Below, in pieces: positions 1 through 10,140 of a stretch of DNA of 62,308 nucleotides. How positions within the stretch are numbered: the first letter of the stretch is position 1; every line of letters starts with the position of its first letter. The stretch comes from an uncultured bacterium (lineage in GTDB: Bacteria > Patescibacteriota > Minisyncoccia > Moranbacterales > UBA2206): assembly GCA_903937035.1 (NCBI GenBank), contig CAIZXS010000016.1, positions 1 to 62,308 of the forward strand. The letters are read 5' to 3'. Position numbers and translations under genes: made by a program. The notes below the pieces were generated by a model that saw only the letters and a list, made by a program, of their open reading frames with translations, was not told the origin of the DNA and searched no databases.

Positions 1-117
1 ATCACATCTGCCATGCGGTGGCGCCCAATGGTCCAACATTAACTCTCGCGAATCTTTCAAAAGAAGAAATTTTTTGTCGTGCCTTATTAGCACAACTACC
101 CCATGATTTTTTATCAT
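1..117 (-). CDS. Partial CDS (first 39 aa, continues beyond the window start), NUDIX-hydrolase-like N-terminus; third cassette ORF
   Basis: ATG at 117 on the minus strand, open to position 1: MIKNHGVVVLIRHDKKFLLLKDSRELMLDHWAPPHGRCD. The pattern resembles the beta-strand/W-x-PGG lead-in of Nudix folds. It starts 18 nt after the GTTATCG box. It is absent from the ORF track because it is truncated. Confidence 0.4.
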   Translation of the reverse strand, partial: MIKNHGVVVLIRHDKKFLLLKDSRELMLDHWAPPHGRCD

Positions 118-135
118 ATTGTAAAATTTTATTTC

Positions 136-220
136 CGATAACGTTCGCGGATATGAGAAGTTGCGTAGCAATTTGGGTTGAGGCTCTGCAAGAGCCGAAC
201 CTCATATCCGCTGTTAGGCG
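136..220 (-). repeat. attC-like structured repeat, copy 2
   Basis: Minus strand: CGCCTAAC-A-GCGGATATGAG...ACCCAAATTGCTACGCAACTT-CTCATATCCGC-GAAC-GTTATCG. It has an 11-bp perfect stem (147-157/201-211), an internal GGCTCT-GCAA-GAGCC hairpin, and a core shared with copy 1. Confidence 0.65.
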
Positions 221-281
221 AGGGTGAGCGACCAAAGGGAGCGAAAGTGCAACGTCCCCTTGAGTCAAAAAAGACCGCCAG

Positions 282-707
282 TTATTTCGTAACTGTATCA
301 ATCTTTTCAACTGGAAGCCAATCATCCATATTTCCATAATTGCTTTTGTCTATTGCAAAAGATTTTACTTCTTCAGTTTTCTTCAATTCAATTAAAACTA
401 TATACCTTTTTCCAGCCCATTTTTTAAACTGGTTTTCAGATAAATTAAGTTTATCTTGATGCTTTTTTACCAAAGCAACTGATTCTTCTGTAGACATTTT
501 ATCTGAATTAAAAACACTATCGACAATAGATTTAGCTTTAACAGTACCTTCCGCATTATTATTGATAAAGAATAAAATATCGCCTTTATTAACTCTTCCA
601 TAAGGTAATTTTCTTCCAGTTGCACCACGAATAATCATGGTTTTACTTCCATCTAATAGTTTTTCTAGTTCATTTGCTTTTGCATCAAGATAAACTACAT
701 GATCCAT
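282..707 (-). CDS. ASCH/PUA-like domain protein (cassette ORF 2)
   Basis: ORF track 282..761. I prefer the internal ATG at 707 (MDHVVYLD...), which is preceded by AAAGGAGAAAACAAA. The size (141 aa) and the G-x-K-T-x-I-I-R pattern are typical of ASCH domains. Confidence 0.6.
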   Translation of the reverse strand: MDHVVYLDAKANELEKLLDGSKTMIIRGATGRKLPYGRVNKGDILFFINNNAEGTVKAKSIVDSVFNSDKMSTEESVALVKKHQDKLNLSENQFKKWAGKRYIVLIELKKTEEVKSFAIDKSNYGNMDDWLPVEKIDTVTK

Positions 708-780
708 TTTGTTTTCTCCTTTCATAGTTTTAATTGTTAATAATAAAAAAATCTTTTGCAATTAAGGTCTTTTTTGATTT

Positions 781-860
781 CGCCTAACGTATCGGCATTA
801 TCTGAAGTTGCATAGCAATTTGGGTGTAGCGTAGCGAAACCAGATATGCCGTGTTGTGCG
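781..860 (-). repeat. attC-like structured repeat, copy 1
   Basis: Minus strand: CGCACAAC-A-CGGCATATCTG...ACCCAAATTGCTATGCAACTT-CAGATAATGCCG-ATAC-GTTAGGCG. The stem 793-804/841-851 has one unpaired T. It starts 20 nt after the stop of ORF 881..1255. Confidence 0.65.
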
Positions 861-880
861 ATGTTACAAATTCAAAAAAA

Positions 881-1255
881 TTACTTACAATCTTCTTTGC
901 AACTACACTTATCTTCAAATTTTGAATTACACACGCCATCGCCACACGCCAAGCATGTCATACCAGGTTCTACTCCAAAACTATCCTTTGGAATTATAGC
1001 ATTACAATTTTCATCATGTGGTTGTGGTGACATTTTCTTAACTAATCCTGGGCAACATTGAAAAGAATCCTTGTCTATCGTGTCAACATACTTTCCTTCG
1101 CTAATACAGTCGATGGTTGGTTGCAAAGAAGATTGCTTATTGACTAAAAAATCATTATTTTGAACTGGCTTATTTTTACTAGCAAAGAACACAAAGACTA
1201 CTATTGATAAAATAATAACCGAAAGAAAGGCAATAATGATTTTTTTATTCATCAT
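881..1255 (-). CDS. Small membrane-anchored/secreted cysteine-rich protein (cassette ORF 1)
   Basis: ORF track 881..1357. The likely start is MMNKKIIIAFLSVIILSIVVFVFF (signal/anchor) at 1255. The C-terminal half carries 10 Cys (CCPG, CLACGDGVC, CSCKEDC). Confidence 0.6.
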   Translation of the reverse strand: MMNKKIIIAFLSVIILSIVVFVFFASKNKPVQNNDFLVNKQSSLQPTIDCISEGKYVDTIDKDSFQCCPGLVKKMSPQPHDENCNAIIPKDSFGVEPGMTCLACGDGVCNSKFEDKCSCKEDCK

Positions 1256-1281
1256 AAATAATTTTTTTGAATTTGTAATTT

Positions 1282-1345
1282 CGCACAACTCGTTCATATC
1301 CGAAGTGTTTTCGGATATTGTACATAATATTGCTAAATTTGTGAA
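1282..1345 (-). promoter_or_regulatory. attI-like site plus outward (cassette-directed) sigma70-like promoter
   Basis: Minus strand: TTCACA (1345-1340), 17 nt, TACAAT (1322-1317). This is followed by a perfect 9-bp hairpin ATATCCGAA/TTCGGATAT (1296-1318), then GAACGA-GTTGTGCG (1289-1282). The CGGATAT/ATATCCG arms resemble the stem of repeat copy 2. Confidence 0.4.
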
Positions 1346-1387
1346 TATTATGTACACTTTATTTATGCTTAAATTATAGCAAAAAAG

Positions 1388-2206
1388 GTGATGGACGTCT
1401 ATTTGAAAAAATTAGAAGACGAACTTAGATTGAGGAGATATAGCCCAAAAACTATTGATTCTTATCGTACATGTGTCGCTAGCTATCTAAAGACTAAGCA
1501 AAAGGATTTTGAAATTGTTGATGTTGATTCTATAAAACAATACATATTGTCGAAAATAGATGATGGTAAGTCATCTCAGACGACCAATCAGCACTTGCAA
1601 GCAATTAACTTTTTCTGCTGGAATGTTTTGAAGTTTCGGGGAAAAATCGATATTCGCTTTGCCAAGACCCCCAGTAAATTACCGATTGTATTGTCGCGAG
1701 ATGAAATTGGAGAAATATTATCAGTAATTGCCAACGAAAAACATAATTTGATGATAGCGTTGGCGTATTCTGGGGGATTGCGGGTTAGTGAAGTCATCAA
1801 CCTGAAAGTTAAGGACATCTGTTTGTCCGAGTTAGTCGTACATATCAAGGACGCAAAGGGAGGCAAGGATCGGATAACGCTTTTACCGGAAAAGCTAATT
1901 ATTAATATTGAAAAAATAATTGTAGGCAAAAATCTTAACGAGTATGTTTTTGCCAGTGAGCGTGGGGGGCGATTAACCGAAAGAACCGCCCAAAAAGTTT
2001 TTGAAAACGCTCTAGAAAAGGCGGGGATTAAAAAAGAAGCTACGTTTCATTCTTTGCGGCATAGTTTTGCTACACATCTCTTGGAAAATGGTGTCGATGT
2101 GCGATACGTGCAAGAACTGCTAGGGCATGCTAATATTAGAACGACTCAGATTTACACTAAAGTGACAAATCCCGCATTAAGAAAGATTAAAAGCCCATTA
2201 GAATAG
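1388..2206 (+). CDS. Tyrosine site-specific recombinase (Xer/IntI-like, short form)
   Basis: SAM-like N-terminal domain (YSPKTIDSYR). Catalytic motifs LRVSE (Arg), HSLRHSFATHLL (H-x-x-R), LGHANIRTTQIYTKV (His, Tyr). GTG at 1388 or ATG at 1391. Confidence 0.9.
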   Translation: MMDVYLKKLEDELRLRRYSPKTIDSYRTCVASYLKTKQKDFEIVDVDSIKQYILSKIDDGKSSQTTNQHLQAINFFCWNVLKFRGKIDIRFAKTPSKLPIVLSRDEIGEILSVIANEKHNLMIALAYSGGLRVSEVINLKVKDICLSELVVHIKDAKGGKDRITLLPEKLIINIEKIIVGKNLNEYVFASERGGRLTERTAQKVFENALEKAGIKKEATFHSLRHSFATHLLENGVDVRYVQELLGHANIRTTQIYTKVTNPALRKIKSPLE

Positions 2207-2215
2207 CCTAATTTT

Positions 2216-4000
2216 ATGAAAAACATTAGAAATTTCTGCATAATCGCCCATATTGACCATGGAAAGTCCACTTTGGCGGACCGAATGTTAGAAATAACAA
2301 AAACTGTTGAAGCGCGCAAGATGAAAGAGCAGTTGCTCGATCAGATGGATTTGGAGCGCGAACGGGGGATTACGATCAAGATGCAACCGGTGCGAATGGA
2401 ATATGCTGGGCATATTTTGAATTTGATTGACACTCCAGGGCATGTTGACTTTGGTTATGAGGTTTCGCGTTCACTTGCGGCTGTTGAGGGGGCGGTGGTT
2501 TTGGTTGATGCTACGAAGGGCGTGCAAGCGCAAACACTGGCTAATCTCTATCAGGCGATTGAGCATAACTTGGAAATCATTCCCGTGGCCAATAAGATTG
2601 ACTTGCCAAACGCTGATGTGGAAAAAACTAAGGCTGAGATTATGCATATTATTGGTTGCAAGAAAGAAGATATTTTGGAGGTATCGGGTAAGACTGGCGA
2701 GGGCGTGGACAAATTGCTGCAGCGAATCGTGGAAGTTGTGCCTGCGCCGAGTGGCGATGAAAATAAGCCATTGCGCGCACTTGTTTTTGATTCTAAATAT
2801 GATATTTATAAGGGAGTTTTGGCTTATGTTCGCGTAATTGATGGCGGAATTTCAGCCGAAGAAGAAATTTTAATGCTGGCAACTGGCGCCAAAAGTGATG
2901 TGATTGAAGTCGGTTATTTCAAGCCAGATTTTCAAAAAACTCCAAAAATAAAGGTGGGCGAAATTGGCTATATCGCAACTGGTTTCAAAAGTGTGGAATA
3001 CTGCAAAGTGGGGGATACAGTCACCATTTCCAAATTTGAAAAACAAATTGAAAAATTGCCTGGTTATCGTGAAGTTAGTCCGATGGTCTATGCTTCTTTC
3101 TATCCGACATCTGGTGATGATTATAATTTAATGCGCGATGCCCTTTCTAAATTGAAGTTGAACGACGCTGCTTTTGTTTTTGAGCCAGAGAGTAATTTGG
3201 CCCTTGGTCGTGGTTTTCGTTGCGGGTTTTTGGGACTGCTTCATCTGGAAATTATCCAGGCTCGCTTGGAAGCAGAATTTGAACTGAGCCCAACCATCAC
3301 CACACCTGGCGTTGTCTATGAAATTCAGCTGACTGGCAAAAATGAAGAAGATCGCTTGAAAGTCTATTCACCGTCAGAATTACCTGACCCATCCGCAATT
3401 GAGGCAATCTTTGAGCCCTACGTTAACTTGGAGATTATTTCTCCATCAAATTATTTGGGAGCAATTATGGAAATGATGCAAAATACACGAGCTGAATATC
3501 TTGATACAGAATATCTCAATAGTGAACGGATGATTTTGAAGTTTAACTGTCCCTTAACGGATGTAATCACTAATCTGCACGATGATCTCAAGAGCGCTTC
3601 CTCTGGTTATGCTTCAATGAACTATGAACTTTCTAACTACCGGGCCAATGATTTGGTTAAATTGGATATCATAATCGCCGAAGAACGAGTAGAAGCGTTT
3701 TCACGGATTGTTCCTAAAATTTGGGCTCATAGTGAAGGCAAGCGGATTGTCGAAAAACTGAAGGATTCTATTCCGAGACAAAATTTTCAAATTGCTATCC
3801 AAGCTGCGATTGGTGGAAAGGTGCTGGCACGCGAAACTGTGAAAGCTTTTCGCAAAGATGTGATCAGTGGGCTTTATGGGGGAGATATTACGCGCAAAAG
3901 AAAGCTTTTGGAAAAGCAGAAAAAAGGCAAAAAGAAGATGAAAAACATCGGCAAAGTAACCATCCCTTCTGAAGCTTTTCTGGCTGTATTGAAGAAATAA
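2216..4000 (+). CDS. lepA: Translation elongation factor 4 (LepA)
   Basis: NFCIIAHIDHGKSTLADR, DTPGHVDF, NKIDL, and the characteristic LepA C-terminal domain; 594 aa. Confidence 0.95.
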   Translation: MKNIRNFCIIAHIDHGKSTLADRMLEITKTVEARKMKEQLLDQMDLERERGITIKMQPVRMEYAGHILNLIDTPGHVDFGYEVSRSLAAVEGAVVLVDATKGVQAQTLANLYQAIEHNLEIIPVANKIDLPNADVEKTKAEIMHIIGCKKEDILEVSGKTGEGVDKLLQRIVEVVPAPSGDENKPLRALVFDSKYDIYKGVLAYVRVIDGGISAEEEILMLATGAKSDVIEVGYFKPDFQKTPKIKVGEIGYIATGFKSVEYCKVGDTVTISKFEKQIEKLPGYREVSPMVYASFYPTSGDDYNLMRDALSKLKLNDAAFVFEPESNLALGRGFRCGFLGLLHLEIIQARLEAEFELSPTITTPGVVYEIQLTGKNEEDRLKVYSPSELPDPSAIEAIFEPYVNLEIISPSNYLGAIMEMMQNTRAEYLDTEYLNSERMILKFNCPLTDVITNLHDDLKSASSGYASMNYELSNYRANDLVKLDIIIAEERVEAFSRIVPKIWAHSEGKRIVEKLKDSIPRQNFQIAIQAAIGGKVLARETVKAFRKDVISGLYGGDITRKRKLLEKQKKGKKKMKNIGKVTIPSEAFLAVLKK

Positions 4001-6184: not shown

Positions 6185-7519
6185 ATGGATAATTTAGATA
6201 TTACCCCTGGTGTGCCACAAGGGGAGAATGAAGTGGCGATAAAAAAAAGAAATCACAAGCATTCTATTTTATTTTTTGTCTCAATGATGGTCATGGCTAT
6301 TCTTGCTTCTTCTCTTTTTGGAGCGTTTTTTGGATTTGTAGCGGGCGGATTCGGTCAAAAAATATTTACACAGATCTCCGGGCGATTTCCGGAGATCTTT
6401 AAGTTGGACAATGGTCAATCGCCAACAATTAAGCTTGATCCGATTGTCTCTCGAGAAAAGATTGTCGAAGAGGATTCTGCGGTTATCGATGTGGTGGAAA
6501 AAAGCACGCCCGCCGTGGTTAGTATTATTATTAGTAAAGACATGCCAAGAATACAAAGCTTCAGTCCCTTCGATTTTTTCAATAATCCGGACTTTTTCAG
6601 CAATTCCCCCGATCAGAATAACCAGCAGGATAACTCTGGAGGTGATAGCAAGAAAGAGAAGATTGGCGCGGGAACTGGTTTTATTATAACAGCCGATGGG
6701 ATGATTGTGACAAATAAGCACGTTGTCTCTGACGCCGCAGCTGAGTATACAGTGCTAACGAATGATGGCAAGGAGCACGTTGCTAAGGTTTTGGCGCGTG
6801 ATCCAATAAATGACATCGCTGTCATAAAAATAGATGGAGCGGATTATCCAACGCTAAATTTTGGTGATTCTGACGGATTAAAAATTGGTCAAACAGCCAT
6901 TGCCATCGGCAATTCACTTGGTGAATTTTCCAATACCGTTAGCAAGGGAATTATATCGGGATTAGGGAGAAACTTGACCGCAGGAGGACGGATGGGCGAC
7001 AGCGAAAAATTGACAAATATCATCCAAACTGACGCGGCAATTAATCCTGGAAACTCTGGTGGTCCGCTCTTGGATATTCATGGGAAGGTGATTGGAATAA
7101 ACGTAGCAATCGCTCAAGGGGCGCAAAATGTTGGTTTTGCAATTCCCGCTACTCAAGTAAGAAGAATTACAGAGCAAGTCAAGACGACTGGCAAGATTTC
7201 TATGCCTTACCTAGGTGTCCGCTATATCCCGGTTGATAAGGATTTGCAAAAGCAAATTAACTTACAGTTTAACTATGGAGTGATGATTCTGCGTGGACAG
7301 TCAGTTCGAGATTTCGCAGTTATTCCCGGCTCGCCGGCGGATAAGGCAGGGCTTGTGGAAAATGATGTGATTTTGGAATTGAACGGAACGAAGATTGATG
7401 AGAAAAATACTCTTGTAGATCTTTTGACTAAATTTAACGTTGGCGATGAGATAATCTTGAAAGTTTGGCACAAAGGCGAGACAAAAGAAGTTAAGCTTAA
7501 ATTGGAGGAAAGGAGTTAA
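6185..7519 (+). CDS. htrA: HtrA/DegP-family serine protease with C-terminal PDZ domain
   Basis: The catalytic triad contexts are intact: [29 protein letters not shown]: [10 protein letters not shown]-terminal TM anchor. Confidence 0.9.
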
Positions 7520-7524
7520 TACCT

Positions 7525-10140
7525 ATGGATCTCAATAGATTTACAACAAAAGCACAAGTCGTACTTCAGAATGCGCAAGAGCTAGCGATTATCAGTAATC
7601 AGCAACAAGTTGATGTTTTTCATTTGCTTTTTGCGCTCCTGGATCAGGAGGATTCTATCATTCCCGTGATCATGAAAAAAATGGAACTGGATGAGGAGAA
7701 AATAAAGTATGACATAACAAAGGAAATTGAAAAGTATCCGCATAATCCACCCCAGGGAATAAAGCAGATATTCATCGCTCCAGAGGTTGTCTTGGTTTTG
7801 AATAATGCGGAAATTGAAGCACGAAAAAATGATGACGAATACGTTTCAACAGAGCATCTCTTACTTTCGTTCTTGGCAACGAAAGGCATAATCCGAGATT
7901 TTCTCACGGCGCACGGGATTAGCTATGAAAACATCCTGAAAATCACAAAAGAATTGCGTGGTTCTCAAAAAATAGATTCGCCTGATCCTGAAAATAGATT
8001 GCAAGCGCTAAAGAAATTTACGATAGATCTGACACAACTGGCGAAGGATAATCTGCTCGATCCTGTGATTGGTCGAGATGATGAAATCAGAAGAGTGATG
8101 CAAGTGCTCAGCAGGCGGACAAAAAACAATCCGGTCCTGATTGGAGAAGCGGGGACGGGAAAAACAGCCATTGCGGAAGGGTTAGCGCAAAGAATTGCAG
8201 ATGGCGATGTTCCGGAAACCTTGAAAAATAAATCACTCATGTCTCTAGACCTTGGGTCATTAATTGCTGGCACAAAATTTCGTGGTGAATTTGAGGAAAG
8301 GCTGAAAGCAATAATCAATGAAATTGATCGTGAGTCCGGGAAATACATCCTCTTTATCGATGAACTCCACACTCTGGTTGGTGCTGGCGCAATTGAGGGG
8401 GCGATGGATGCTTCTAATATGCTCAAACCAGCTTTGGCGAGAGGCAAGCTGCGCATGATTGGAGCAACGACCACGAAAGAATATCAAAAATATATCGAAA
8501 AAGATGCGGCCTTCGAAAGGAGATTTCAACCAATTGTTGTGGGCGAGCCATCAATTGAAGATTCGATAGCAATTCTGCGAGGGCTCAAGGAAAAATATGA
8601 GGTTCACCATGGCGTGAAAATTACTGACGCTGCCATTCAAGAGGCAGTAAAACTATCCGATCGTTATATTACCGATCGCTATCTTCCTGATAAAGCAGTG
8701 GATTTGATTGATGAGGCGACAAGCGCACTGCGCATGGAAATTGATTCAATGCCCGCAGAAATTGATTCAACTGAGCGGCTTTTGCGAAGAATGGAGATTG
8801 AAAAGAAGGCGTTAGAAAGAGAGAAAAACCCAGATGCCAAGAAAAAAATTCGAGAGTTGAATCGTAAGTTGGCGGAAATACGAGAACAAGAAGGAAAAGT
8901 TTTATTGCAATGGAAAGCAGAAAAAGAATTAATTACCAATATTCGAAAACATTCCATTGAGATTGACAGACTAAAATCTGCAGCAGAAATTGCGGAACGA
9001 AAAATGGAGCTAGATAGGGTGGCGGAGATTCGTTATGGGAAAATACCTGAATTAGAAAAGAAGGTGCTCTTGGAAAAAAAGAAATTAGATATACTACAAG
9101 ATAAAGGTGCGATTCTTAATGAGGAGGTAACCGAGGAAGACATTGCTAAGGTAGTTTCTCGCTGGACAGGAATCCCTGTTTCAAAAATTATTGAGAATGA
9201 AGCTCAGAAGTTAATTAAGATGGAAGAGGTTATTGGCAAACGAGTTGTGGGGCAATCTGATGCAATTTCTGCTATTGCCAACGCGATTAGGCGTTCACGT
9301 TCCGGCATTGTGGAAGGAAAAAGGCCAATTGGATCATTTATTTTTCTTGGACCAACTGGAGTTGGGAAAACAGAATTAGCTAAGGCTCTGGCAGAGTTTC
9401 TTTTTAATGATGAAAAAGCGATTGTTCGGGTGGATATGGGAGAATATATGGAGTCACATAGTACTTCGAAGTTAATCGGTTCGCCACCTGGCTATGTTGG
9501 CTATGAAGAAGGAGGGCAACTAACTGAAATTGTTCGCCGAAAACCATATTCTGTCATTTTGTTTGATGAGATAGAAAAAGCCAATCAGCAAGTGTTTAAC
9601 ATCCTACTTCAGGTTCTTGACGAAGGACATCTTACTGATGCAAAGGGCAGACGAGTGAATTTCAAAAATACGGTAATTATCATGACTTCCAATCTCGGGT
9701 CAGAGATTATTCATAAGAAAAATCTCGGTTTTCGTGAAGAAAGAGATGATGATGTATTGGCTGAATCTGATATGCGACAACGTGTTTTAGTTGCACTCAA
9801 GGAGAGTTTTAAGCCGGAATTTCTAAATCGGATGGATGAAGTTATTATTTTTCATCCGATTGATTGTAAGATGCTGCGGCAAATTGTTGATTTGCAACTG
9901 GCTCAAATTGAAAAAAGACTAGAGGAGAAAAAGATTAAAATAAGATTGACGCCTTCCGCAAAAGAGTATTTAAGCAAAAAAGGTTATGACACTACTTACG
10001 GCGCGCGACCTCTGAAACGTCTCATTCAGACAGAAATAATGAATGAGTTAGCGCGTATGATTATAGAAAATAAGATCAAGGAGGGGAATAAGATTAAGAT
10101 CGACTCAAAAAACGATAAACTTATCTTTGAAATTGCGTAA
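7525..10140 (+). CDS. clpB: ATP-dependent chaperone ClpB
   Basis: Clp N-domain, two AAA+ modules ([16 protein letters not shown]) and a long middle coiled coil; 871 aa. Confidence 0.95.

Follow-up and report, generated by a model that had tools for sequence, protein, structure and literature searches.

The bottom strand of a canonical attC site carries AAC in its R′ box, folds more stably than its complement and is richer in G:T pairs, while its extrahelical bases lie on the arm opposite the AAC triplet and are read by the I2 helix of the integron integrase IntI (PMC5027507). The I2 helix docks these bases and prevents second-strand exchange, and its deletion inactivates IntI1; in the prevailing view, I2 and the recombination of single-stranded DNA are restricted to integron integrases, the gain of I2 being the enabling innovation (PMC7790495). 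Xer-related enzymes of candidate phyla have been grouped as the “Cand” subgroup, to which no element is assigned, and the insertion was described as “not fully conserved” in the integron-like subgroup (Smyshlyaev et al., 2021; PMC8138268). In the full-text literature (subscription journals being outside coverage), a search for integrons or cassette arrays in Patescibacteria, also known as candidate phyla radiation (CPR) bacteria, led to resistome surveys only, with no description of either. The subject of this study is a pair of attC-like repeats at positions 131–224 and 777–864 of contig CAIZXS010000016.1 (assembly GCA_903937035.1) from an uncultured member of the Patescibacteriota (Minisyncoccia; Moranbacterales; UBA2206), the whole 62,308-nt stretch being referred to below as the window. 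The two repeats probably serve mobile gene cassettes as attC analogues, the cassettes forming an integron-like array in the chromosome of a Patescibacteria/CPR bacterium, and the array appears to belong to an apparently undescribed integron-like system whose recombinase lacks I2.

Two attC-like sites in the window

The displayed strand of the window is taken as the + strand, and the array is already under way at its left end. Read on the + strand, both elements are built to one shared plan. A 12-nt box (ATTTC-NNN-TAAC), a 4-nt spacer and an 11-nt stem arm are followed by hairpin 1 (AAGTTGC-RTA-GCAATTT) and GGGT, and then by a variable hairpin 2, (G/A)AAC, the complementary stem arm, a single T and a second 12-nt box (GTTA-NNN-GATGT). 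The parts are listed below, with scores from R1, a covariance model made from an alignment of 38 full-length copies of the site.

131–224, + strand: attC-like site copy 2, the property of cassette 2 (model R1, 84.7 bits, E 2e-17)
131–142, + strand: R′ box of copy 2, ATTTCCGATAAC, with spacer GTTC at 143–146
147–157, + strand: L arm of copy 2, GCGGATATGAG, pairing perfectly with L arm′ CTCATATCCGC at 201–211
158–174, + strand: hairpin 1 of copy 2, AAGTTGC-GTA-GCAATTT, with GGGT at 175–178
182–196, + strand: hairpin 2 of copy 2, GGCTCT-GCA-AGAGCC (6 bp, 3-nt loop), with GAAC at 197–200
212, + strand: spacer T of copy 2, with R″ box GTTAGGCGAGGG at 213–224
222–266, + strand: add-on hairpin module of 45 nt after the R″ box of copy 2, GAGGGTGAGCG...CCCCTTGAGTC
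777–864, + strand: attC-like site copy 1, the property of cassette 1 (model R1, 89.8 bits, E 1e-18)
777–788, + strand: R′ box of copy 1, ATTTCGCCTAAC, with spacer GTAT at 789–792
793–804, + strand: L arm of copy 1, CGGCATTATCTG, with a bulged T at 798/799, pairing with L arm′ CAGATATGCCG at 841–851
805–821, + strand: hairpin 1 of copy 1, AAGTTGC-ATA-GCAATTT, with GGGT at 822–825
829–835, + strand: mini-hairpin GC-GTA-GC of copy 1, at the hairpin 2 position
852, + strand: spacer T of copy 1, with R″ box GTTGTGCGATGT at 853–864

A first-pass annotation, made from the letters of the window alone, had described two repeats in which a long stem encloses two sub-hairpins. All of this is there in the sequence, and single-stranded DNA folding of the + strand agrees (copy 2, −21 kcal/mol, z −4.8; copy 1, −13.6 kcal/mol, z −2.2). 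The perfect 11-bp stem of copy 2 and the 11 bp plus unpaired T (798/799) of copy 1 were seen as described, as were the near-identical conserved sub-hairpin with its GGGT (158–178 and 805–825) and the asymmetry of the spacers (GTTC at 143–146 and GTAT at 789–792 against a single T at 212 and 852). The variable sub-hairpin reported for copy 2 is also present, but its loop has 3 nt on 6 bp (GGCTCT-GCA-AGAGCC) and is not GCAA. The boundary boxes, given earlier as 7 nt, are in fact conserved over 12 nt (ATTTCNNNTAAC and GTTANNNGATGT), hence the elements span 131–224 and 777–864. Hairpin 1 and GGGT together form a 21-mer core with two matches in the window and none in 100 shuffles, and no copy was found elsewhere in the window by 21-mer search or model R1.

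The 3′ box of copy 2 ends in GAGGG, and the add-on module, which ends in CTTGAGTC, stands in place of the usual GATGT. Copy 2 together with its module recurs at 95–99% identity in four loci whose labels name four different CPR phyla (L002, L025, L028 and L032), where it lies beside different open reading frames (ORFs). Shorter variants, consisting of GA, a hairpin and CTTGAGTT and ending in CTTGAGT, occur in L012, L014, L023 and L033.

A site family with covarying stems

The exact 21-mer occurs in 40 loci of a species-representative genome collection, at a G+C content of 31–47%. The majority carry Patescibacteria/CPR labels (Uhr-, Magasanik-, Falkow-, Moran-, Portnoy-, Peregrini-, Peri-, Gracili- and Saccharibacteria, and Parcubacteria). 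Model R1, which misses many long-hairpin sites and is too narrow for a census, gives 104 matches in these loci and the window. Within each locus the matches lie on one strand at a spacing of 0.4–2 kb (for example, six in L032, five or six in L021 and five in L005). Most of the additional sites lack the 21-mer and keep the plan, their hairpins 1 and 2 varying in length and sequence.

The 21-mer is also found in metagenome-assembled genomes (MAGs) labelled Woesearchaeota, Altiarchaeales, Thermoplasmata, Gammaproteobacteria (contigs up to 288 kb) and Flavobacterium, the labels being taken as given (L004, L006, L011, L017, L027, L029, L030 and L035). These matches reflect either cross-domain spread or mis-binning. 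L011 contains a GmrSD-like (DUF262-type) ORF, read by eye, together with an ABC-transporter ORF set between two sites.

Additional copies support the stems drawn from the two window sites, with compensatory changes at 11 of 11 outer-stem pairs and 92–94% pairing. Across the 38 full-length copies, both partners of every one of these pairs have changed, and pairing holds in 92% of cells, compared with 27–47% when the partner is slid by 1–3 columns; none of 500 shuffles matched the observed value. In a set of 91 sites, 90% of cells are paired (32–38% in slid controls). The outer stem is 93.5% paired; at the base of hairpin 1, pairing reaches 99.4%, four pairs covary and a G.T wobble is retained in 77 of 79 sites. 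The three-way junction predicted for the folded form is recovered by unconstrained folding in 68 of 89 sites. GNA triloops make up 72 of 187 predicted loops, often within GCGNAGC mini-hairpins. The junction bases A-GTT / AAT-T-GGG / AAC are conserved over the 91 sites, the AAC of the R′ box is retained in 79–85 of 87, and the R arm has a constant TT/TG mismatch.

The spacer asymmetry, already taken for a fixed trait from two copies, is family-wide, the 5′ spacer being 4 nt in 71 of 91 sites and the 3′ spacer 1 nt in 88. Two other parallels with known attC sites did not hold. The unpaired T of copy 1 is not equivalent to a classical extrahelical base; a bulged C or T is present at that one fixed place of the 5′ arm in only 17 of 91 sites, copy 1 included (a bulge on the opposite arm occurs in one). 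Nor does the high-identity core reflect homogenisation within one array in the manner of Vibrio cholerae repeats (VCRs): other sites of the same array lack it, yet it is identical across many phyla.

In 80 of 89 sites the + strand has the more stable fold of the two, the mean difference being 2.4 kcal/mol (Wilcoxon p 2e-15, the sites being related and hence non-independent). The longest ORF lies on the strand opposite to the folding strand in 51 of 56 inter-site segments. Taken together, these two biases place the folding strand antisense to the cassette genes, as is the “bottom strand” of integrons. Judged from the comparative evidence, the structure of the sites is under selection.

Two hybrid sites were noted (L034 303–399 and L007 2245–2331), in which a 5′ arm GCGGATATGAG or CGGCACATGCG is joined to the 3′ arm CAGATATGCCG of another subfamily. 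As the arms come from different subfamilies, the outer stem cannot form. The cause is either recombination inside the shared 21-mer core or chimeric assembly.

Cassette borders and mobility

By the integron rule, recombination in the AAC/GTT triplet puts the rest of R′ at the start of the cassette. Comparison shows that each cassette runs from the C that follows the ...TAA of one site to the TAA of the next, with its own site at the 3′-end of its ORF. The cassette ORFs of the window are as follows.

1–117, − strand: 5′ part of the cassette 3 ORF, a NUDIX hydrolase (Pfam NUDIX, E 6e-15), which exits the window on the left
282–725, − strand: cassette 2 ORF, 147 aa, no family match
881–1255, − strand: cassette 1 ORF, 123–124 aa, Cys-rich, with a hydrophobic N-terminal segment

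The boxes at the two ends of a cassette match each other. The right box of copy 2 (GTTAGGCGA) is the exact complement of the left box of copy 1 (TCGCCTAAC), and the right box of copy 1 (GTTGTGCGA) that of a lone box at 1278–1289 (TCGCACAAC), so that the three variable box positions travel with the cassette between them. Perfectly complementary end boxes were read by eye in 8 of 10 recombinase-proximal cassettes, and also in L047 and L049. Among adjacent R1 matches, 47% are perfect at four variable box positions compared with 7% in shuffled pairings, many of the failures spanning gaps big enough to conceal an undetected site.

L028 (labelled Uhrbacteria) and L032 (labelled Peribacteria) have one cassette in common, with 91% identity over 945 nt. 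On either side it has different neighbours in the two loci, and the similarity stops exactly after ...ATTTCG(T/C)CTAAC. This shared cassette is direct comparative evidence of mobility. Otherwise, conservation of DNA between loci is confined to the sites and does not extend to the ORFs, and one site sequence serves different ORFs. The gene contents of cassettes over the loci include NUDIX, MazG, glyoxalase, methyltransferase, EamA and GmrSD-like genes and many unknowns. The cassette 1 protein is probably secreted, given its Cys-rich composition and N-terminal hydrophobic segment.

In L049, two adjacent cassettes (8115–8925 and 9078–9989) are duplicates that encode an LCM-like methyltransferase of 251 aa and share the same boxes and internal repeats. 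This pair is a tandem cassette duplication, as in large sedentary integrons. A 1.1-kb segment common to L032 and L038 was considered as a mobile cassette and rejected, as it is an IS110-family element inserted at a site. The element (Transposase_20, E 5e-26; L032 3805–4913 and L038 2405–3696) lies at the GTT box of the site with its ORF on the folding strand and has 80–84% identity between the two arrays. Its position recalls the IS1111-attC elements of canonical integrons. The 21-mer had no match in 2.9 million viral contigs, so that nothing points to a phage vehicle.

An attI-like site and a divergent recombinase gene

At its right-hand end, the array abuts an attI-like site and a divergent recombinase gene, with cassette borders falling in YAAC.

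1278–1320, + strand: attI-like site, with R′ box ATTTCGCACAAC at 1278–1289, then TCGT and the L-arm-like TCATATCCGAAGT
1296–1304/1310–1318: 9-5-9 palindrome in the attI-like region, ATATCCGAA-GTGTT-TTCGGATAT
1345–1317 and 1401–1373, − strand: two promoter-like sites directed towards the cassettes, each 10/12 consensus, candidates for the cassette promoter (Pc)
1391–2206, + strand: tyrosine recombinase, 271 aa (272 aa from GTG at 1388), divergent from the cassette ORFs

Cassette 1 ends within the YAAC of the attI-like R′ box. A motif of the form ATTTCNNNYAAC-TNGTT-TATANCGAA lies directly 5′ of the recombinase gene in all 11 independent loci. In each of them, the cassette end nearest to the recombinase (ATTTC-NNN-YAAC) is followed by the non-cassette sequence T-NGTT-TATA-N-CGAA(GT). 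This conserved sequence is read as an attI analogue, being similar to the part of the cassette sites that comprises the spacer, the L arm and the first junction bases. The 9-5-9 palindrome is kept with compensating changes in L036, L045, L047 and L049 and is absent from the distant L010, L012, L014, L026 and L033; possible roles are those of a dif-like core, an operator and a minimal hairpin site. The promoter-like sites of the attI region are candidates only, their number in the promoter scan being not above chance.

Recombinase homologues with 37–82% identity are present in 7 of the 40 site-bearing loci, always downstream of the array on the folding strand. Three loci picked by protein alone (L045/L046; L047, a 672-kb contig; and L049) all have upstream sites in the same geometry. 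L049 has seven sites with six cassette genes called between them on one strand (HD, NUDIX, methyltransferase, EamA and two LCM-like). All 11 independent loci, eight of them reached through the site and three through the protein, combine a one-strand array, a conserved attI-like site and a recombinase gene in the same geometry. Where read, the cassette ORFs are directed away from the recombinase, except in L047, whose sole called cassette gene lies on the recombinase strand. With one-strand arrays adjoining a tyrosine recombinase and with stems that covary, the attC-like reading of the first-pass annotation is well supported.

A recombinase without the I2 region

The recombinase of the window contains a PF00589 domain (E 7e-44) and an N-terminal SAM-like domain (PF13495, E 3e-9), and its motifs LRVSE, HSLRHSFATH, LLGH and IYT align with XerA, IntI4 and IntI1. 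Among NCBIfam models, it scores 216.9 bits with XerA_Arch (cut-off 220) and 215.5 bits with the integron integrase model TIGR02249 (cut-off 265), the latter in two stretches that skip the middle of the model; scores with XerD (183 bits, cut-off 330) and XerC (178 bits, cut-off 335) are lower. By these profiles, the enzyme matches IntI and XerA about equally well. In the alignment with VchIntIA (2A3V), query residues 182–195 stand opposite chain residues 186–241, and in the alignment with IntI1 the query lacks about 43 residues at that point. The missing region is the IntI-specific additional domain with the I2 helix. As the I2 region is absent in all three comparisons (TIGR02249, VchIntIA and IntI1), the partner of the sites cannot be called a canonical IntI.

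The recombinase family comprises more than 6000 clusters at E < 1e-30, with a uniform length of 270–273 aa and annotation as XerD or “tyrosine recombinase”. The best 120 clusters are 73–95% identical to the recombinase of the window. No paralogue was found in the 62-kb window.

Comparison with described systems

Canonical integrons (class 1 integrons and the Vibrio superintegron with its VCRs) share many features with these arrays. Their attC sites have boxes of the form 5′-RYYYAAC / GTTRRRY-3′, in which AAC is carried by the antisense strand of the cassette ORFs, and the window boxes that fit this consensus are GATAAC/GTTAGGC and GCCTAAC/GTTGTGC. In both, an unpaired spacer with its longer side next to AAC separates the R and L stems, the terminal structure varies and has a GNA loop, and the bottom strand is more stable and carries G:T pairs. 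At the level of the array, they share one site per cassette, complementary cassette ends, one orientation beside attI and a divergent tyrosine recombinase, and the insertion of IS110-family elements into sites.

Unlike canonical IntI, the CPR recombinase lacks the I2 region, and unlike canonical attC sites, the CPR sites lack extrahelical bases on the arm opposite AAC (one bulge in 91 sites). Their spacers are of 4/1 nt, as opposed to 6/5 nt in the aadA1 attC site, and their boxes are 12 nt long with a constant TT/TG mismatch. Their fold is a three-way junction in which the junction bases are conserved and a G.T wobble is invariant. Whereas canonical attC sites are unconserved in sequence beyond the boxes, the 21-mer core of the CPR sites is exact in 40 loci of many phyla. 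Model R1 gave no match on the canonical aadA1 and blaVIM-4 attC sites. The CPR array is functionally an integron in which two defining molecular features of the canonical family, the additional domain of IntI and the extrahelical bases, are lacking.

Archaeal integrons (Ghaly et al., 2022; PMC9668308) likewise consist of cassette arrays, mostly without a nearby integrase, in uncultured lineages with small genomes, DPANN included. There is evidence of cross-domain site sharing in that system, and the 21-mer is found in MAGs labelled Woesearchaeota, Altiarchaeales and Thermoplasmata. However, archaeal integrases have the IntI-specific additional domain and their sites were found with the standard attC model; the 21-mer core is absent from the supplements of that paper.

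CTX phage attP(+), recombined by XerCD at dif, is similar in that an I2-less Xer-type enzyme recombines a folded single strand mimicking a duplex core, and in that one strand pair is exchanged owing to an asymmetric hairpin centre (PMC7790495, together with general background). It differs from the CPR arrays in being a phage genome rather than a promoterless one-gene cassette, in lacking arrays of dozens of sites, in needing two recombinases and in having a site without a three-way junction. The single-recombinase Xer systems (archaeal XerA/dif, XerS/difSL and XerH/difH) resemble the CPR system in protein size, domains, best structural relatives and a target beside the gene, and the “Cand” subgroup (PMC8138268) was likewise defined from candidate-phyla genomes. 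In contrast, no cassette arrays or hairpin sites have been described for either, and the CPR recombinase scores as high on the IntI model as on the XerA model.

Proposed mechanism and significance

In the mechanism proposed here, the strand antisense to the ORFs (+ in the window) would fold with the 12-nt boxes paired as the R arm and the 11-bp stem as the L arm. The asymmetric 4-nt/1-nt internal loop would part the two arms, and the three-way junction with its conserved bases would cap the structure. Recombinase protomers would occupy both arms, R and L, in the manner of a dif-like core and cleave the AAC-bearing strand only, which would be exchanged with attI or another site. Only one strand pair would be exchangeable, because a usable central region (the 4-nt spacer) exists on the AAC strand alone, the other side having 1 nt. 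Replication would then resolve the recombination product. The near-absent second spacer, the TT/TG mismatch and the invariant G.T wobble would mark the strand and block second-strand exchange. Recognition by the enzyme or a cofactor could be the role of the conserved GGGT junction, the mismatch and the wobble. Canonical integrons use I2 and extrahelical bases for the same job, and CTX phage uses XerC on its hairpin; the joint absence of I2 and of canonical extrahelical bases fits this strand asymmetry. The excised cassette would probably fold end to end into a rod, with a predicted circular junction of ...ATTTCNNNTAA joined to the C-GTTT-stem of the same cassette.

Several points weigh against the integron-like reading. 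All of the evidence is comparative, with no excision or insertion event observed, and the case for single-strand folding is drawn from covariation and strand bias. Since deletion of I2 abolishes IntI1, an I2-less enzyme acting on hairpins is without experimental precedent save for XerCD and CTX. The strong conservation of the recombinase and its annotation as XerD mean that it may have a housekeeping role. Four contigs with an identical recombinase (L041–L044) show no cassette polymorphism, and therefore no gain or loss event was caught. Many of the sequences are MAG contigs, whose taxon labels and assemblies are possibly erroneous. The array statistics are incomplete on account of the long-hairpin sites missed by model R1. 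The hybrid sites with mismatched stem arms (L034; L007:2245–2331) are a further difficulty.

On balance, the evidence leans, by a little, towards a broader proposal, namely that an I2-less integron-like system, in which a Xer/IntI-like recombinase collects and stockpiles gene cassettes by way of folded single-stranded sites, is extant in thousands of Patescibacteria (CPR) genomes, that site asymmetry (4/1 spacer, TT/TG mismatch, G.T wobble and three-way junction) replaces recognition of extrahelical bases by I2, and that its cassettes are selected to form rods. If so, integron evolution would have left in this system its long-postulated pre-I2 stage, unless the solution arose independently, and the origin of integrons would become directly testable with living representatives. 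It would also offer a second way of limiting a tyrosine recombinase to one strand exchange. CPR bacteria, whose genomes are tiny and which are believed to rely on hosts and DNA uptake, would gain a defined gene-capture mechanism, and genes would have a route between CPR phyla and possibly DPANN archaea. Because standard tools require the IntI-specific domain, such arrays presumably escape them. A conserved short site and a small enzyme may be of interest to builders of recombination tools.

Alternative explanations

The alternative that survives best, though an improbable one, is that the enzyme is the sole chromosome-dimer resolvase of its host (XerA/XerS/XerH-like) and the adjoining site is dif. 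The cassettes would then be Xer exploiters akin to integrative mobile elements exploiting Xer (IMEX), piling up at dif after entering as folded single strands, like CTX phage. This overlaps with the integron-like reading, from which it differs mainly in the primary role of the enzyme. The best match in the PDB is XerA, whose NCBIfam cut-off is missed by 3 bits, and the XerD annotation, uniform lengths and very high conservation point the same way, as do the lack of a paralogue in the 62-kb window and the gene-adjacent 9-5-9 palindrome (1296–1318) that covaries in L036, L045, L047 and L049. Single-recombinase Xer systems have their dif beside the gene. Such an Xer ancestor was proposed for IntI by Escudero et al. 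(PMC7790495). However, none of the curated XerA, XerC and XerD cut-offs is reached (XerA_Arch is marginal, at 216.9 vs 220), the palindrome is lost in the distant L010, L012, L014, L026 and L033, and the crossover that would follow from the cassette borders falls in the AAC box, outside the palindrome. The downstream neighbours differ by lineage (lepA, MFS, fmt or a lactamase_B gene), and the flanking genes are neither convergent nor accompanied by a switch in GC skew, which is a weak test over the ~70 kb visible.

Three other readings were rejected. The first, for which the chances are slim, is an on/off switch in which the recombinase acts on double-stranded DNA and flips single cassettes. 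Terminal inverted repeats of 25–40 nt are present in every cassette and have a cassette-specific core, which would confine recombination to the two ends of that cassette, and a few cassettes have their ORF on the other strand (5 of 56 segments; L047). However, the orientation is the same in 51 of 56 segments and in all called array genes of L041 (13 of 13) and L049 (6 of 6), and inversion would leave unaccounted for the covarying stems within sites, the three-way junction, the strand bias and the AAC-bordered cassette shared by different arrays.

The second, less probable still, is that the repeats are terminators, stabilisers of mRNA 3′-ends or small RNAs, with the recombinase as a bystander. 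A conserved wobble of the G.U type and covarying stems are typical of structured RNAs, and the elements lie directly after stop codons. Yet the better-folding, wobble-bearing strand is antisense to the ORFs. No terminator-like site or T-tract was found on either strand of window positions 1–1500, and an Rfam scan of positions 1–3000 gave no match at the repeats up to E 10, which makes a role as RNA unlikely. GNA triloops and GCGNAGC mini-hairpins are typical DNA structures. An RNA function would leave the cassette-end rule and the constant recombinase geometry unexplained. The chance that the motif is a transcribed element found outside recombinase contexts, which the first-pass annotation had allowed for, is further reduced by the location of the sites in recombinase-adjacent arrays.

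Equally implausible are selfish hairpin elements spreading alone into intergenic spaces, in the manner of repetitive extragenic palindromes (REPs) or miniature inverted-repeat transposable elements (MITEs): near-identical sequence in many phyla, an intergenic position and a Y1 transposase gene near the L047 site would suit them, but not a single orientation within arrays with one site per cassette, boxes exchanged between neighbouring sites as site-specific recombination predicts, no Y1 transposase gene called in the loci scanned (L041, L045 and L049) and no window copy outside the array.

Quasi-palindromic cassettes

In most cassettes, the complementarity of the ends continues 10–25 nt past the boxes in a cassette-specific sequence. 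Nested perfect inverted repeats of 12–33 nt link the two halves of cassettes, coding sequence included (50 cassettes from about 25 loci). Those of the window are as follows.

265–276/766–777, 352–366/748–762, 389–401/724–736 and 448–462/682–696: nested perfect inverted repeats of cassette 2, giving a rod-like fold of the whole cassette
850–887/1255–1292: terminal inverted repeat of cassette 1, 38 nt, 89% complementary
888–903/1120–1135 and 1146–1159/1232–1245: inner rungs of cassette 1

Window positions 225–1290 hold eight perfect inverted repeats of at least 12 nt (0.13 expected), four of which have at least 15 nt (0.003 expected). The 50 cassettes have 135 long-range repeats, against 10.7 expected, while the rest of the window has one, against 1.2 expected. 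Pairs of repeats within cassettes are nested in 139 cases, crossing in 19 and side by side in 65. Single-stranded DNA folds of whole cassettes give z −4.9 for cassette 2 (213–788) and z −7.5 for cassette 1 (853–1289), and z +0.6 for a lepA control. An LCM-like gene of 251 codons in L049 (4084–9989 region) has eight nested rungs. No strand bias was found in the flanks of the repeats, which look random (195 G.T against 189 A.C). The canonical blaVIM-4 and aadA1 cassettes differ in having neither the pairing of 10–25 nt beyond the boxes nor the quasi-palindromy, no comparable repeats being present in three class 1 cassettes (two blaVIM-4 and one aadA1).

Several origins may be considered for this pattern. 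Selection may have favoured an excised single-stranded circle that folds as a rod and carries the site at one of its ends. Folding of the array's bottom strand, one cassette at a time, is another possibility, and a third is that perfect repeats are made continually by template switching at hairpins. Quasi-palindromic coding cassettes are a separate puzzle, in which DNA structure would constrain coding sequence.

Array boundaries and neighbouring genes

L041 is the contig of the window in extended form, with an identical recombinase (window coordinate = L041 − 8610). Its array comprises 13 small genes, all on the minus strand, including MazG/PRA-PH, DUF5680, glyoxalase and NUDIX genes, the last being that of cassette 3 (L041 8329–8727). 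Further long-hairpin sites, one half-site and one degenerate site were read by eye in L041, where model R1 with filters off matched the two window sites only. The far boundary of the array is murJ. Between murJ and the last small gene (L041 3648–3832), an inverted repeat TTGTCATCCTGAGCGAAG ... CGCTCAGAATGACAA surrounds a G+C-rich segment and is unlike the cassette sites.

The genes downstream of the recombinase vary by lineage and include lepA, MFS, fmt and a lactamase_B gene. Near its single site, L047 carries a transposase gene of the Y1 (IS200/IS605) type (6547–7218), and in L049 the array has a ComEC competence gene (2479–3912) immediately outside its far end; both positions are possibly coincidental.

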